Sequence record: MZ726797.1
Reading direction: 5' to 3' (one strand)
Length of the DNA stretch: 57,811 nucleotides
From: Escherichia phage vB_EcoS_AVIO78A
This document shows, one piece after another, positions 13,330-17,373 of this stretch (its first letter is position 1; each line of letters opens with the position of its first letter). The notes below the pieces were generated by a model. That model saw nothing but the letters and a program-made list of their open reading frames with translations. It was not told the origin of the DNA and did no database searches. The translations under genes and the position numbers were made by a program.

Positions 13330-13575
13330 ATCGTATACAGGCGGTAAACCCATTGCTGCCTGAACAGACCGTTTTTCGTATTCCTCCCGCAGTTTCTGAA
13401 GCTGTTCAATACCGATGTCACAACCACGTATGATATCGGTGCACAGGTCGTTGTAGGTTGCTTCAGATTGCTTGCTGTGTGGGTAATCAACACAGGATGG
13501 ATCTGCAATAATGACTTTCGGTAGATACGCGACAGTATCGCCCATTGCGTTTTTAAATATCGTCATAGTTAGCAC
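13318..13575 (-). CDS. hypothetical protein
   Basis: ORF track. Confidence 0.4.
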   Translation of the reverse strand: MLTMTIFKNAMGDTVAYLPKVIIADPSCVDYPHSKQSEATYNDLCTDIIRGCDIGIEQLQKLREEYEKRSVQAAMGLPPVYDNLK

Positions 13576-14030
13576 CCATGATTAAGTTCCTGACCTGGTT
13601 CAACTATACGCCCACATGTACTGCAGAAATATTGCCATTTAAAACCGGGCATTGCTGACAATTTACGATAACCAGCATCATAAATTTGTTTTGCAGAATT
13701 AAGAGGATCTGCACCATTGTGATCGATGATTTGCAAAATTTCATCAATAACCTTTTCACGTTCTTTCGGAATAGGTCTGAAGTTTTCCGCGTTACCTACA
13801 ATAAACGATTGTGTACCGTCATCAGGCTTTAACCATATATCATCACCATGATGACCTAATACCGTCACCTTTACCCAATCGTGATCAACGCTTGCTAACC
13901 ACTCGCATACTGTACCGACAGGTGGTAAACCTTCACCATCCCATTGTTGTTTTTCATTCACACAGTCAGGACAAATACCATGTTTTTGATCACTGTTATC
14001 ACGCATGTGTTTTTCACAAAAACTTTTCAT
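13569..14030 (-). CDS. zinc-ribbon protein with WDGEGLPPVG motif
   Basis: ORF track; CxxC pairs at both ends. Confidence 0.5.
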   Translation of the reverse strand: MKSFCEKHMRDNSDQKHGICPDCVNEKQQWDGEGLPPVGTVCEWLASVDHDWVKVTVLGHHGDDIWLKPDDGTQSFIVGNAENFRPIPKEREKVIDEILQIIDHNGADPLNSAKQIYDAGYRKLSAMPGFKWQYFCSTCGRIVEPGQELNHGC

Positions 14031-14356
14031 AAATACGACCCCACAATTGCTGCACAGTTGACGATCGCTAAACGCGTTGCTTTTTCACGGTCTTCTCCGT
14101 GGCTAACTGGTTGCTTATAACTAACGCCAGTGTCAGGGTTATTAACCGTCACTTCGTTGTCACGAACATCCAGATCCATATACATGTTAACCATCAGACT
14201 GAAAGCATCCTCATTACGTGTAAGAGGGTTCCACAGGCGACCATTACCTATATCAATACCTTCGTTTATGTAACGTTCGTCGTACGCGACGTAATATTTA
14301 CCCTGGATTTCAGCAGCCCGTGCTGCGTTGACTAATAAATCACGATTGTTCATCAT
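14027..14356 (-). CDS. hypothetical protein
   Basis: ORF track. Confidence 0.45.
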   Translation of the reverse strand: MMNNRDLLVNAARAAEIQGKYYVAYDERYINEGIDIGNGRLWNPLTRNEDAFSLMVNMYMDLDVRDNEVTVNNPDTGVSYKQPVSHGEDREKATRLAIVNCAAIVGSYL

Positions 14357-14856
14357 ACCCGTCCTGTTGATCCAAACCCGCCATTACGCTGACTATCAAC
14401 ATCTGGTAATTCTTCCACTTCAACCAGGTTAACAGGTTCGACACGTTCAACCATAAGCTGGCAAACGCGTTCACCGTCTGCGATGGTCTGTAATTTATGC
14501 CCGTGGTTAGTCAGCGTAACGTAGTATTCTTCTTTGTAATCACGATCACCGATACCCACACAGTTGATTAGTGACAAACCGTGTTTAAGACTCATGCCGG
14601 AACGTGGGTAAAATTTAATGCAATATCCGCTATCAACTGACATTTTCAGACCAGTGGGGATCATAGCGCGGTCGCCGGGCCATAATGCGATTGTTCCTGC
14701 AACAACCGGACGTTCCACTTTAGCGCCTGATTCTGTGAATATATTTACCGATTCTTCCCACAGGCAAGCACGAACGTCTAACCCGGCGCTGTCTGGTGTT
14801 GCACGTGTCGGAAGTTCAGCGTGGGGTGTTAGTTTTTTGATATACAGGTTAGTCAT
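14353..14856 (-). CDS. dut: dUTP diphosphatase (trimeric dUTPase)
   Basis: motifs SAGLDVRA, PRSGMSLKHG, GIGDRDYKEE, C-terminal GGFGSTG match dUTPase. Confidence 0.8.
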   Translation of the reverse strand: MTNLYIKKLTPHAELPTRATPDSAGLDVRACLWEESVNIFTESGAKVERPVVAGTIALWPGDRAMIPTGLKMSVDSGYCIKFYPRSGMSLKHGLSLINCVGIGDRDYKEEYYVTLTNHGHKLQTIADGERVCQLMVERVEPVNLVEVEELPDVDSQRNGGFGSTGRV

Positions 14857-14890
14857 TGTTTAATTCCTCAGTGTGTTTCGTTCGTGACAA

Positions 14891-14935
14891 ATGTTAGTGT
14901 GACCGCTTGCAATGTGTCAAGAATTATTTTAAACT
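14891..14935 (-). promoter_or_regulatory. conserved promoter (-35 TTGACA, -10 TAACAT)
   Basis: motif family member. Confidence 0.55.
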
Positions 14936-14963
14936 TCTGTCAACGTTAACCAATGAGGAATAA

Positions 14964-15647
14964 ATGATGAGTAATATCGACTGGAGTGAAGCACCAGACT
15001 GGGCTACATGTGTTGTTCTTAATAAAACAACAAACACTTTTGCATGGTCTGATGGTTCAATTCACGCACCAATTTTAAGAAATCCGCCACAAATTATGGA
15101 CAATGCTGATGACTTTGAAATCTTTGAAAAACGCCCTTGTGGTCCAGCAACATCTGTCAAAACAAAACTGTTAATGACACCGAAAGCCCGTGGTAATACT
15201 TACGAAGAATTCATTGCGACCGGGTGGAATGACGACCAGTTAGTCGAACATGGTTATGCTGTTCGTATTACAGACAAACGTTCCTGGTCACCAATGACCG
15301 TCGGAACTGAAACAATTACACCACCTTCAAACTGTCGGTGCACATTCACCCCTGTTCAACAACCATCAACAGCGTCTGACTTACTGAAACAGGCTGAACA
15401 GCTACTGACAGAACGTGGTAAGCAGTATGACACGTCTGGTCAGGAACGTTCGTCAGCTAAAATCGTTGCTGCGTTTAACACAATTACCGGGCGCGACTTA
15501 ATACCGGGTGAAGGGTGGTTATTTCTGATGCTGTTAAAAGCGGTTCGTTTCTATTCCAACACTGAAACACCACATCGTGACAGTCTGGAAGACCTGATCA
15601 GCTACGCTGCATTACACGCAGAGGAACATCTTAACGATGAACGGTGA
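14964..15647 (+). CDS. hypothetical protein sharing a ~25 aa motif (TYEEFIATGWNDDQL) with the SSB-like protein C-terminus
   Basis: ORF track; GAGGAA RBS. Confidence 0.55.
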   Translation: MMSNIDWSEAPDWATCVVLNKTTNTFAWSDGSIHAPILRNPPQIMDNADDFEIFEKRPCGPATSVKTKLLMTPKARGNTYEEFIATGWNDDQLVEHGYAVRITDKRSWSPMTVGTETITPPSNCRCTFTPVQQPSTASDLLKQAEQLLTERGKQYDTSGQERSSAKIVAAFNTITGRDLIPGEGWLFLMLLKAVRFYSNTETPHRDSLEDLISYAALHAEEHLNDER

Positions 15648-15819
15648 ACAAGCATTCGACCTTCTGGTTAAATACGACATTATTGTTATTCACTGTGACC
15701 GTGAACAGATCGTTTTTACAGACGATCTTCGTCATGAAGAACCTTATGACGGTGATAAACGGTCTGCCACGATTCGGTTAATCGAACGTGTGGCACGTGA
15801 CAGAGGGGAACTATTATAA
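15637..15819 (+). CDS. hypothetical protein
   Basis: ORF track. Confidence 0.4.
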   Translation: MNGEQAFDLLVKYDIIVIHCDREQIVFTDDLRHEEPYDGDKRSATIRLIERVARDRGELL

Positions 15820-16013
15820 TGGTTCAAACTATTTCTGAATTACTACCCACCGTTTATGGCAACGTAACAGAACTTGCCAGGCGGATTGGGTGTAACAAAG
15901 CGACAGTTTATAAATATATGGATGACACCAACGGTGAATTTCACGCAGTAGTGAATGGTAAGTTGATGGTCAGACCCGGTTTTAAAGGACGTTATACTCG
16001 TGACAAAAGATGA
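15819..16013 (+). CDS. small helix-turn-helix-like protein
   Basis: ORF track; TELARRIGCNKATVYKY resembles an HTH. Confidence 0.4.
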   Translation: MVQTISELLPTVYGNVTELARRIGCNKATVYKYMDDTNGEFHAVVNGKLMVRPGFKGRYTRDKR

Positions 16014-16158
16014 AAAATTATTACGTGAACTTGAAATAGACTACGAACGAGCACAAAAAGCGTTACAGTTTCTGGAAGAACAGATCCGCGAAGTTAAGAA
16101 CCGCATTCAGGGAACTGAAAAACGTAATCTTCCACGCCCGTAACACGTGATATAATCG

Positions 16159-16186
16159 GCCTCAGTGTGTTAACTGAGGCTTTTTT
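16159..16186 (+). terminator. hairpin GCCTCAG-N8-CTGAGGC plus T6 directly abutting the next start codon; same element occurs inverted at 52221
   Basis: direct reading. Confidence 0.5.
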
Positions 16187-17146
16187 ATGGCTACTAAAGA
16201 CCCATACCCGGATATTTCAGACAAGTATGACGCTCGCATTCGCGAAGCACTTGATGTCGTGTGGGAAAACGTGCGTCGTAGTGAGTCGTTAGCTAACCTG
16301 GAATACATCATTGAAACTCAGGGTATTGCCGGGCTACTCCCCATTCTTGAAACACTCCATGATGAACTTAGTGCACAGTTGCGCCCGGTTATTGAAGACG
16401 CGATCGCCGAATCAGGTCGTGTAGTCGTTCAGGTTTTACCGAAAGCGGCTGTGACAGGTCCGGTTGTGTTCAGTCTGGTCACCCCACAGGTCAGCACATA
16501 TATCAACAACTATGTCGGACAACTGATCCGTGAAGTCAGTGACGAAACAGTCAAAGCTGTTCAGATTGCTGTTAACCAGGGTGTAGTAACCGGACGAAAT
16601 CCGCGTCAGATGGCCCGTGATTTTCGATCATCAATAGGGTTAACCACACGGCAGGAAATGACGGTTCAACGTCTGCGATCAGCACTGGAAAAAGGTGAAG
16701 CAGGTTATGTGAACAGTCTGACCACTATTACAGACAGTACAAAGAACGCTGTAAGTGCCGGGAAACTATCACAGGCGAAGATTGACCAGATAATCGAACA
16801 GACACGCTTGCGTTATGTAAAACAGCGCACAGAGACGATTGCGCGTACTGAATCACTTCGTGCTGTATCAGTTGGTCAGGATCAGGCTATTCGTCAAGGG
16901 CAGGTTACAGGGTCAATCAGTAACGAGTTATTAAAACGATGGTTATATAGAAAAGATGGTCGGACACGTGACGCGCATATTTCCACAGGTGAAACGAACG
17001 GCTGGATACCAATGGACAGACCGTTTTCAACGCCGTTAGGACCACTTATGTTTCCTCGTGATCCTAACGGTAGTGCCGCGAACGTGATTAATTGCCGTTG
17101 CCGGGTACAGTACAGTTTGCCGGAAGATATAGGTTCATTGGGTTAA
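16187..17146 (+). CDS. head morphogenesis protein (Mu F / SPP1 gp7-like)
   Basis: 319 aa after portal; C-terminal NCRC-type motif (NVINCRCRVQY). Confidence 0.6.
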   Translation: MATKDPYPDISDKYDARIREALDVVWENVRRSESLANLEYIIETQGIAGLLPILETLHDELSAQLRPVIEDAIAESGRVVVQVLPKAAVTGPVVFSLVTPQVSTYINNYVGQLIREVSDETVKAVQIAVNQGVVTGRNPRQMARDFRSSIGLTTRQEMTVQRLRSALEKGEAGYVNSLTTITDSTKNAVSAGKLSQAKIDQIIEQTRLRYVKQRTETIARTESLRAVSVGQDQAIRQGQVTGSISNELLKRWLYRKDGRTRDAHISTGETNGWIPMDRPFSTPLGPLMFPRDPNGSAANVINCRCRVQYSLPEDIGSLG

Positions 17147-17373
17147 TCAGGTTCACGCCAGTCAAGAGGTCGCACATCACATAACAGACGAACATTATCT
17201 TCAAATTTTATGTTTATCCTGTGATGTGCAGTATCATTTTCATAAACAGAAGGCCATATTTCATAACCCTGAACAGTTCGTGCCACCCACTTGTTAATGC
17301 TTGCCAGATGGATCAACACTTCACAACCAACTGGAGGGAGGTTTTTACCATCCCAAATCTGTTTCATTCCCAT
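17143..17373 (-). CDS. hypothetical protein with WDGKNLPPVG motif (paralog of 13569..14030 N-terminus)
   Basis: ORF 17143..17409 trimmed to ATG 17373 with GGAG RBS. Confidence 0.45.
   Translation of the reverse strand: MGMKQIWDGKNLPPVGCEVLIHLASINKWVARTVQGYEIWPSVYENDTAHHRINIKFEDNVRLLCDVRPLDWREPD

Follow-up and report, generated by a model that had tools for sequence, protein, structure and literature searches.

The genome of Escherichia phage vB_EcoS_AVIO78A (9NA-like), whose complete sequence of 57,811 nucleotides is the window analysed here, contains two separate leftward-transcribed accessory units, cassettes A and B, that break up the rightward head-gene cluster, and each carries a minus-strand gene for a small protein (proteins 1 and 2; Table 1) with a WDG[EK][GN]LPPVG motif. 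An earlier note on this DNA read the motif as part of a paralogous domain, duplicated across accessory cassettes and of unknown function, which raises the questions of whether the two proteins share a domain at all, how they came by it and what it may do. Both ORFs and both motif-bearing peptides lie where the note had placed them, and LPP[VIL]G is confined to these two ORFs in a six-frame translation of the whole window. Besides a promoter-like site, a dUTPase and a terminator, cassette A holds four ORFs of no assigned function. The protein 2 gene is convergent with the head-morphogenesis gene, which it overlaps by 4 bp; its true start is the ATG at 17373, because its 12 homologues all open with MG.K.IWDG.

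Table 1. Features of the two cassettes and of the proteins they encode (window positions).
Feature	Positions	Strand	Remarks
Cassette A	12536..14920	-	Contains protein 1; genes 12563-14856; portal on one side, ORF 14964 on the other
Cassette A bidirectional terminator	12536-12557		Towards portal gene; consensus match only
Protein 1 gene	13569..14030	-	AVIO78A_032, UAW58817.1; 153 aa plus stop; exact named-record match
Protein 1 tail	13572..13649	-	Residues 128-153; C136-x2-C139 ... H151-x-C153; probable small zinc ribbon
Protein 1 two-helix module	13650..13766	-	Residues 89-127; ends I-Y-D-A-G-Y-R-K
Protein 1 LPPVG Tudor/SH3-like barrel	13767..13949	-	Residues 28-88; predicted
Protein 1 cap motif	13914..13943	-	W30-D-G-E-G-L-P-P-V-G39; A1 alignment, model
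Protein 1 N-terminus	13953..14030	-	Residues 1-26; C5-x2-H8 ... C20-x2-C23; possible zinc knuckle, residue pattern only
Cassette A dUTPase	14353-14856	-
Cassette A promoter-like site	14920-14891	-	Consensus match only
Cassette B	17143..18674	-	Leftward accessory unit after head-morphogenesis gene; last gene is protein 2
Protein 2 gene	17143..17373	-	UAW58825.1; 76 aa plus stop; stand-alone LPPVG barrel
Protein 2 barrel	17164..17361	-	Residues 5-70; cap motif through closing V67-R-P-L70
Protein 2 cap motif	17326..17355	-	W7-D-G-K-N-L-P-P-V-G16; pLDDT ~90 for residues 11-20

That the two proteins have a homologous domain is almost certain. Pairwise BLASTP aligned them with 21 identities in 41 positions (E 5e-7), identity across the domain being about 35%, and hhalign of their orthologue alignments gave 94.9% probability over 34 columns. 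Searches against the PHROG profiles placed protein 1 in phrog_3483 (4.6e-22) and phrog_7798 (5e-15) and protein 2 in phrog_26831 (1.7e-16), with cross-matches of protein 2 to the first two (6.7e-6 and 1.5e-5, respectively) and of protein 1 to the last (0.022). An HMM made from 229 domains of the family, excluding the protein 2 subfamily, was run against all 939 six-frame segments of the window and retrieved protein 2 at E 6.8e-8 in an alignment extending from the W through the closing RP[L], while a second profile (A3) scored the two proteins at 8e-25 and 3.9e-22. With both profiles, no further copy of the domain was detected in the window, the next best segment having E>=0.45. The profile match covers the whole barrel of about 60 residues, well past the 10-residue motif core to which the similarity might have been confined, and structure predictions made independently for the two proteins returned the same five-stranded barrel.

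The domain, as delimited by profile and structure evidence, comprises about 60 residues from W-x-G-x-x-L-P-P-V-G through a closing [F/V]-R-P-[I/L]. Its plan begins with an ordered N-terminal cap (W-x-G-E/K-G/N-L-P-P-V-G; more broadly W-x-G-x-x-[LF]-P-P-[VI]-G), which directly precedes beta-1 (x-x-C-E-aromatic/aliphatic); a conserved Trp stands at the start of beta-2 (W52 in protein 1, W29 in protein 2), and the closure of the barrel by [F/V]-R-P-[I/L/V] is present in both proteins. In the AF2 model of protein 1 (pLDDT 75.8) the cap is an ordered coil (pLDDT ~85), strands are predicted at residues 41-46, 51-61, 64-69, 76-78 and 84-86, and F84-R-P-I87 closes the barrel. The predicted strands of protein 2 (18-23, 28-33, 36-41, 51-57 and 60-63; model pLDDT 82.1) match these after a 23-residue offset. 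A five-stranded Tudor/SH3-like barrel is therefore the very probable fold according to these models, which rest on shallow alignments of 23 (protein 1) and 12 (protein 2) sequences; where the cap packs, and a pairing of E43 with R85, are guesses from the same models. A search of solved structures with profiles A3, A4 and A1 gave nothing below E 0.5. Conservation falls on the cap, C42, E43, W52, V57 and F84-R-P-I, and indels abound between residues 62 and 82. The invariance of the motif in this conservation table is partly by construction, because the sequences were chosen by a motif regex, and an HMM-selected set shows a similar picture of conservation.

Protein 1 combines the barrel with other modules, in the order Cys/His N-terminus, LPPVG barrel, two-helix module and CCHC tail, and has 33 homologues; in an alignment (A1) of 23 sequences, W30, P36, P37, V38 and G39 are invariant. 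The two helices are predicted at residues 90-101 and 109-125, and protein 1 has I116-Y-D-A-G-Y-R-K123 where the family consensus reads FRPIRTPEQIAAEER...LYDAGYRK. Family members usually carry this module C-terminal to the barrel, and the combination is the commonest architecture of the family; a YDAGYRK helical module without a barrel was seen neither in 988 neighbouring ORFs nor in the rest of the window. The Cys/His extensions at both ends of protein 1 look like zinc sites by their residue patterns. The N-terminal one is modelled with low pLDDT (46-59) and is common only to two A1 members (P0002 and P0016), other relatives having unrelated N-terminal modules. The tail, modelled as a short beta hairpin, is kept by 13 of the 23 sequences in A1 regardless of the type of N-terminus; the Pfam comparison with DZR_2 reached an E of only 0.77, so that the zinc ribbon is a pattern-level assignment. 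Protein 2 consists of the bare domain without the two-helix module, and this stand-alone form of 76 residues offers the easiest entry to structural and interaction studies.

The earlier reading of a duplication thus stands as regards a homologous domain in two separate cassettes. It does not stand as regards a copying event within this genome, in which the gene of one cassette would have been copied recently into the other and then diverged. A genome of 58 kb with two copies, each on the minus strand and in an accessory cassette, would fit such an event, which is nevertheless most improbable given the low protein identity in the domain and the following observations. Over the 14 codons around the motif, the best-conserved stretch, 26 of 42 bases are identical, and the motif codons for Leu, Pro, Pro and Val all differ synonymously between the two genes, no synonymous site that could vary being the same in both. 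The orthologue subfamilies are distinct (phrog_3483 for protein 1, phrog_26831 for protein 2) and each is present in other phage lineages. Finally, the two genes are present or absent independently among close, near-identical relatives; in phage PDP46, protein 2 is present, whereas the protein 1 gene is missing precisely between conserved neighbours. Judged from these comparisons, both proteins belong to a single domain family that is widespread in phages, and within it they diverged anciently.

The modules of this family reassort. The DNA of protein 1 is ~99% identical to Bas82_0017 over nt 1-255 and 40-60% identical thereafter, the drop falling exactly at the boundary between barrel and helices as a sharp recombination joint, and in one relative (P0005) a helical module of the window type (30/39 identical) is joined to another N-terminus. 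N-terminal, barrel, helical and zinc-tail modules would accordingly be exchanged through recombination at domain borders. Gene content varies at the cassette level as well, PDP46 having an additional 307-aa gene in cassette B.

The family is large and wholly unannotated. At E<=1e-3 the domain profile matched 2,152 representative clusters (50% identity), mostly proteins of 120-200 aa in which the whole domain is covered, some with tandem copies. The core of protein 1 matched 136 phage records, all labelled 'hypothetical', among them Pseudomonas PAK_P3, PA5oct and D3 as well as JD001-like phages of Klebsiella, and a member of the MKLIDLL type matched 205. Matches thus run to hundreds of sequenced phages, some of them Pseudomonas and Klebsiella phages relevant to therapy, and Salmonella contigs that carry one member number at least 1,000. 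In keeping with the earlier note, no database searched carries a functional annotation for it: Pfam and NCBIfam gave no informative match for proteins 1 and 2, 23 relatives of protein 1 or 142 diverse members, no PADLOC-DB model matched the two proteins or five diverse family members (seven scanned), and a literature search on LPPVG and YDAGYRK found no paper on the family. PHROGs already groups these proteins, in three families kept apart and all labelled 'unknown function' (phrog_3483, phrog_7798 and phrog_26831); their linkage, the borders and fold of the domain and its modular architecture come from the present analysis, by which three unlinked families and many "hypothetical proteins" become a single domain family open to testing. 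For AVIO78A itself little is altered, both genes being ordinary accessory phage genes that form no new system. The shared domain is genuine and fairly ordinary phage "dark matter", and the barrel is common among phages.

Known barrels offer partial comparisons. The predicted five-stranded SH3-type barrel is that of the Tudor domain (PF00567/PF06003, Royal family), and eukaryotic Tudor domains are the best structural matches, which would suit a true methyl-Lys/Arg reader with evolutionary ties to them. The domain profile also matches a protein with 12 Tudor domains and a zf-MYND (P0051) via repeated PPVGSLC...W.RVEVLG stretches; these are near-identical repeats of ~10 bits each, so that their summed E-value is inflated, and we rejected Tudor homology by this route. 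Such a reader is scarcely credible in view of the Pfam results, in which the TUDOR and SMN_Tudor models gave no match to proteins 1 and 2 even at E<=1 and no Tudor-family model matched the 142 members at E<=1e-3. Moreover, the Tudor cage has about four aromatics, whereas W52 (W/Y/F in ~98%) is the sole conserved cage-equivalent aromatic in the phage domain, position 44 being aromatic in 50% and position 66 W in 41%. Compared with Royal family barrels (SMN, TDRD3, 53BP1, PWWP, chromo), the phage domain is acidic and phage-encoded, and adds the invariant W-x-G-E-G-L-P-P-V-G cap and the closing F-R-P-I. Small Tudor/KOW barrels also serve in bacteria as protein-docking domains (CarD/Mfd-RID, the UvrD/PcrA C-terminal domain and NusG KOW), for which RNA polymerase or the ribosome is mostly the docking partner, and provide a bacterial precedent for a protein-binding role. 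The LPPVG domain is further of the same kind as the SH3/Tudor-like small beta-barrel phage clusters of the Viral AlphaFold Database, to which that paper assigns no function (PMC12487901).

Genomic setting and expression suggest when these proteins act. A degenerate DNA pattern scan located 116 viral loci; in 29 of them the family gene is followed on its own strand, at a distance of 1-6 genes, by a tyrosine integrase gene, and upstream neighbours include ERF or RecT recombinases. Members sit in early regions that are non-essential, such as the P22-type ea region upstream of xis-int, where the BTP1 member is flanked by an ASCH gene and xis-int, and an Erwinia prophage member lies between ERF/Ead_Ea22 and int. 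At 3.5 min, PAK_P3 gp130, a typical family member, had normalised counts of 18469/13118/9099, and at 13 min of 9934/9010/4633; its neighbour gp129 is essentially late-only (PMC4933390, S5 Table). The family is thus probably early/accessory and non-structural. Since both AVIO78A genes are embedded in the head-gene region, amid portal, head-morphogenesis and capsid genes, and one member elsewhere adjoins a P22 coat gene, accessory roles in the virion or its assembly (decoration, neck or scaffolding helpers) were also considered. They are very improbable: the strand is opposite to that of the structural genes, cassette content varies among relatives, members in temperate phages belong to the early-left operon next to xis-int, gp130 has high counts at 3.5 min in contrast to late structural genes, and PDP46 dispenses with the protein 1 gene.

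Charge bears on the nature of the ligand. The median pI over 252 members is 5.14, with 83% below 6; proteins 1 and 2 have pI values of 5.27 and 5.85, respectively, and the barrel of protein 1 alone has a pI of 4.55 and a charge of -6. This acidity, the lack of a basic patch among the conserved columns and the lack of an HTH or other DNA-binding Pfam domain in the 142 members make it improbable that the barrel is a nucleic-acid-binding module (PWWP, Sso7d-type or KOW-like) and the proteins small transcription, DNA or RNA regulators, as the two possible zinc sites of protein 1 and the proximity of family genes to recombination and excision genes might have suggested.

Our favoured explanation, which we hold to be somewhat more likely than not, is a barrel family acting as an acidic protein-binding scaffold in early accessory proteins. 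The cap, beta-1, beta-2 and beta-5 would form an invariant structural frame, and the half made of beta-2, beta-3 and beta-4, hypervariable in sequence and length, would supply binding specificity; it is this combination that points to a scaffold. Sitting in non-essential, early-expressed proteins, it would engage proteins of the host (or of the phage) in the course of infection. A protein-binding scaffold directed at host factors is a tentative suggestion from fold, charge and context, and the near-invariant cap, rather than the variable half, could be the functional site. An unlikely extension is that the LPPVG barrel represents a distinct, undescribed phage-wide binding toolkit, in which the cap would dock one conserved hub protein of Gammaproteobacteria and the variable half and swappable modules would bring about differing effects, host takeover or counter-defence for instance. 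If true, the family would form a novel class of effectors that target the host early, with a spread comparable to that of a Pfam clan. In the BASEL work (PMC11990801), KarinMuster (Bas82), which has both genes, was not unusually robust against the defence systems tested and so lends no support to an anti-defence role.

Two further observations concern neighbouring and inserted sequences. DUF551 (PF04448) genes share early-left accessory regions with LPPVG-family genes, frequently lying upstream of these and no more than three genes away, and their W-x(n)-LP motif superficially resembles the LPPVG cap; kinship was rejected, as hhalign, given the domain profile and a DUF551 protein, returned 0.9% probability and Pfam DUF551 did not match protein 1 or 2. 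In Skate-like phages, family genes appear to be split by a homing endonuclease, but an HNH gene would need more than the extra ~270 bp, which are more likely an additional inserted module.

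Protein 1 (153 aa, 13569–14030) and protein 2 (76 aa, 17143–17373) are both encoded on the minus strand as the earlier note described, and the motif that it reported in these two small proteins belongs to a genuine similarity extending well past the 10-residue core. BLASTP aligns the two with 21 of 41 residues identical (E 5e-7), hhalign matches their two orthologue alignments to each other at 94.9% probability, and the PHROG family of each protein is also matched by the other. An HMM of 229 family domains, from which the protein 2 subfamily was left out, picked protein 2 out of 939 six-frame segments (E 6.8e-8), with an alignment running from the opening W to the closing RPL, and the second-ranked segment reached only E 0.45. 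The observation is thus confirmed and widens to a full domain. Because 12 homologues of protein 2 all begin MG.K.IWDG, its start can be placed firmly at 17373. Both proteins correspond residue for residue to database entries of Escherichia phage vB_EcoS_AVIO78A (UAW58817.1, AVIO78A_032, for protein 1; UAW58825.1 for protein 2). No LPP[VIL]G occurs outside the two ORFs in the six-frame translation of the window, and a domain search of the window found no third copy of the barrel.

The shared region opens in both families with W-x-G-x-x-L-P-P-V-G (hereafter the cap), has a conserved Trp about 12–15 residues later and closes with [F/V]-R-P-[I/L/V]. AlphaFold2, run with separate alignments, predicts a five-stranded barrel both for protein 1 (pLDDT 75.8) and for protein 2 (pLDDT 82.1). 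Once a 23-residue offset is taken out, the strands of the two barrels line up, and the cap is modelled as an ordered coil (pLDDT 85–90). In addition to this LPPVG barrel, protein 1 has predicted helices at residues 90–101 and 109–125, ending IYDAGYRK. Its C-terminal tail contains C-x2-C...H-x-C, kept in 13 of 23 relatives, and its N-terminal segment contains C-x2-H...C-x2-C, common to only two relatives; these Cys/His patterns suggest possible zinc sites at both ends.

The earlier note had attributed the resemblance to a paralogous domain duplicated across accessory cassettes, whereas codon differences, orthology and gene content all argue against duplication within the genome. Only 26 of 42 bases are alike over the 14 codons around the motif, with the Leu, Pro, Pro and Val codons each different between the two genes; the proteins form separate orthologue groups; and phage PDP46 (96.6% identity to the window region across the 84% that aligns) has protein 2 while the protein 1 gene is missing exactly between conserved neighbours. 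In place of a duplication, proteins 1 and 2 are long-established members of a single modular phage family. Modules recombine among its members. The protein 1 counterpart in Escherichia phage KarinMuster_Bas82 (95.7% identity to the window region), Bas82_0017, agrees with it at about 99% of DNA positions across the initial 255 nt, which encode the N-terminus and barrel, and then at 40–60% through the helical module. In this comparison (locus L001, 2070–2549), the recombination joint in the protein 1 gene is sharp (13767–13775, residues ~86–88) and falls exactly on the border between the barrel and helix domains. A helical module of the window type (30 of 39 residues identical) also stands behind a different N-terminus in the family protein P0005. 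The ORF at 14964–15647 (plus strand, 227 aa), whose C-terminus is DUF6378, begins with another shared module of this region, NIDWSEAPDWAT..., of the IDWS.AP.WA type that also starts many LPPVG-family proteins (e.g. P0186, P0072 and PAK_P3 gp130).

The family belongs to the small Tudor/SH3-like barrels of phages, for which PHROGs already has clusters labelled unknown. A search of 1.84 billion proteins with its domain profile retrieved 2,152 representative clusters (E ≤ 1e-3). Most members are 120–200 aa long with a full-length domain match in mid-protein, and several of the metagenomic or prophage proteins P0047–P0054 carry a tandem pair of LPPVG barrels in one chain. In the consensus architecture, a variable N-terminal module (e.g. 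IDWSKAPEGA... or MKLIDLLVQELP...) is followed by the barrel, W-x-GEGLPPVGTVCE...W...FRPIRTPEQIAAEER, and by C-terminal helices ending LYDAGYRK or YDAIAAGKIPGV. With tblastn, the protein 1 core was found in 136 phage records, including phages of Pseudomonas (60), Klebsiella (57), Escherichia, Vibrio, Aeromonas and Acinetobacter, and a second member type in 205; among the matches listed, nearly all annotated features are 'hypothetical protein'. The protein 2 subfamily is narrow, with 9 records comprising the 9NA/Sasha group, phage C130_2 and one Enterobacter phage. In Salmonella phage 9NA, a relative of the window region, a protein 2 homologue of 80% identity at 14705–14929 has no annotated feature in either record (KJ802832.1 and NC_025443.1) and appears to be a gene that the annotation overlooked. 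Of 142 members, none fits a Pfam or NCBIfam model, the 7 proteins scanned against PADLOC gave no match, a solved structure of any relative was not found, and a literature search on the family motifs found no paper naming them. Although the family is unnamed, the kind of object is already known, because in a structural survey of viral proteins the largest phage-specific fold clusters were reported to be SH3/Tudor-like barrels, most of them uncharacterised (PMC12487901). The interest is modest: a well-delimited, very widespread domain without an assigned function, for which the 76-residue protein 2 offers an easy test case.

The conserved columns (protein 1 numbering) are the cap, C42, E43, W52, V57 and F84-R-P-I, and the half of the barrel from beta-2 to beta-4 is rich in substitutions and indels, both family-wide and among the close orthologues of protein 2. 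On the simplest reading, the barrel would be a rigid frame with a variable binding face, serving as a scaffold that binds proteins, as other Tudor/SH3 barrels do, and joined to exchangeable partner modules. Alternatively, the invariant cap itself could be where a single conserved host protein docks. The acidic character of the family (median pI 5.14, 83% below 6; protein 1 barrel pI 4.55) speaks against nucleic-acid binding. A Tudor-type reader of methyl marks is unlikely: the domain profile does match P0051, a eukaryotic-type protein with 12 Tudor domains, but through weak, near-identical repeats of PPVGSLC..W worth about 10 bits each, the Pfam Tudor model matches neither protein 1 nor protein 2, and a single position of the aromatic cage is conserved.

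Scanning viral contigs with a degenerate DNA pattern yielded 116 loci carrying a family gene. A tyrosine integrase lies 1–6 genes downstream on the same strand in 29 of them, upstream neighbours include ERF or RecT recombinases, and DUF551 proteins are also close by. The BTP1 member has an ASCH gene on one side and xis-int on the other, within a P22-type ea region, and an Erwinia prophage member is flanked by ERF/Ead_Ea22 and int. PAK_P3 gp130 (2315–2824 in locus L127), a textbook family member, shows high transcript levels at 3.5 min (normalised counts 18469/13118/9099) and persists at 13 min, while gp128 and gp129, immediately upstream, are essentially silent at 3.5 min and gp129 is essentially late-only (S5 Table, PMC4933390). 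The silence of these neighbours implies that gp130 has its own early promoter. Setting and timing together point to non-essential, early-expressed accessory genes and not to virion parts.

Both genes of the window lie in leftward cassettes (A with protein 1, B with protein 2) that break up the rightward head genes. Protein 2 ends cassette B, and its 3′ end runs 4 bp (17143–17146) into that of the head-morphogenesis gene, across the stop codon, with no terminator-like site between the two genes, unlike at the portal/cassette A junction.

Features surrounding the two barrel genes in the window
Feature	Position	Strand or direction	Remarks
Cassette A terminator hairpin, bidirectional, clean	12536–12557		Portal/cassette A junction
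Cassette A promoter-like site	14920–14891	leftward	Start of cassette, then dUTPase
Head-morphogenesis gene	16187–17146	plus	Converges on protein 2
91-aa ORF	17379–17654	minus	Directly upstream of protein 2; phrog_7033, unknown function
126-aa ORF	17819–18199	minus	Pfam Phage_VG64 7.5e-46; PHROG 478 'recombination directionality factor'

The recombination directionality factor label on the 126-aa ORF, which the Bas82 annotation shares, looks doubtful in a virulent phage. This ORF begins with a lipoprotein-type signal (MKKLILCAMLTTLTAC). In the 91-aa ORF, a C-x-C close to the start and a C-P-F-C close to the end look like a zinc ribbon.
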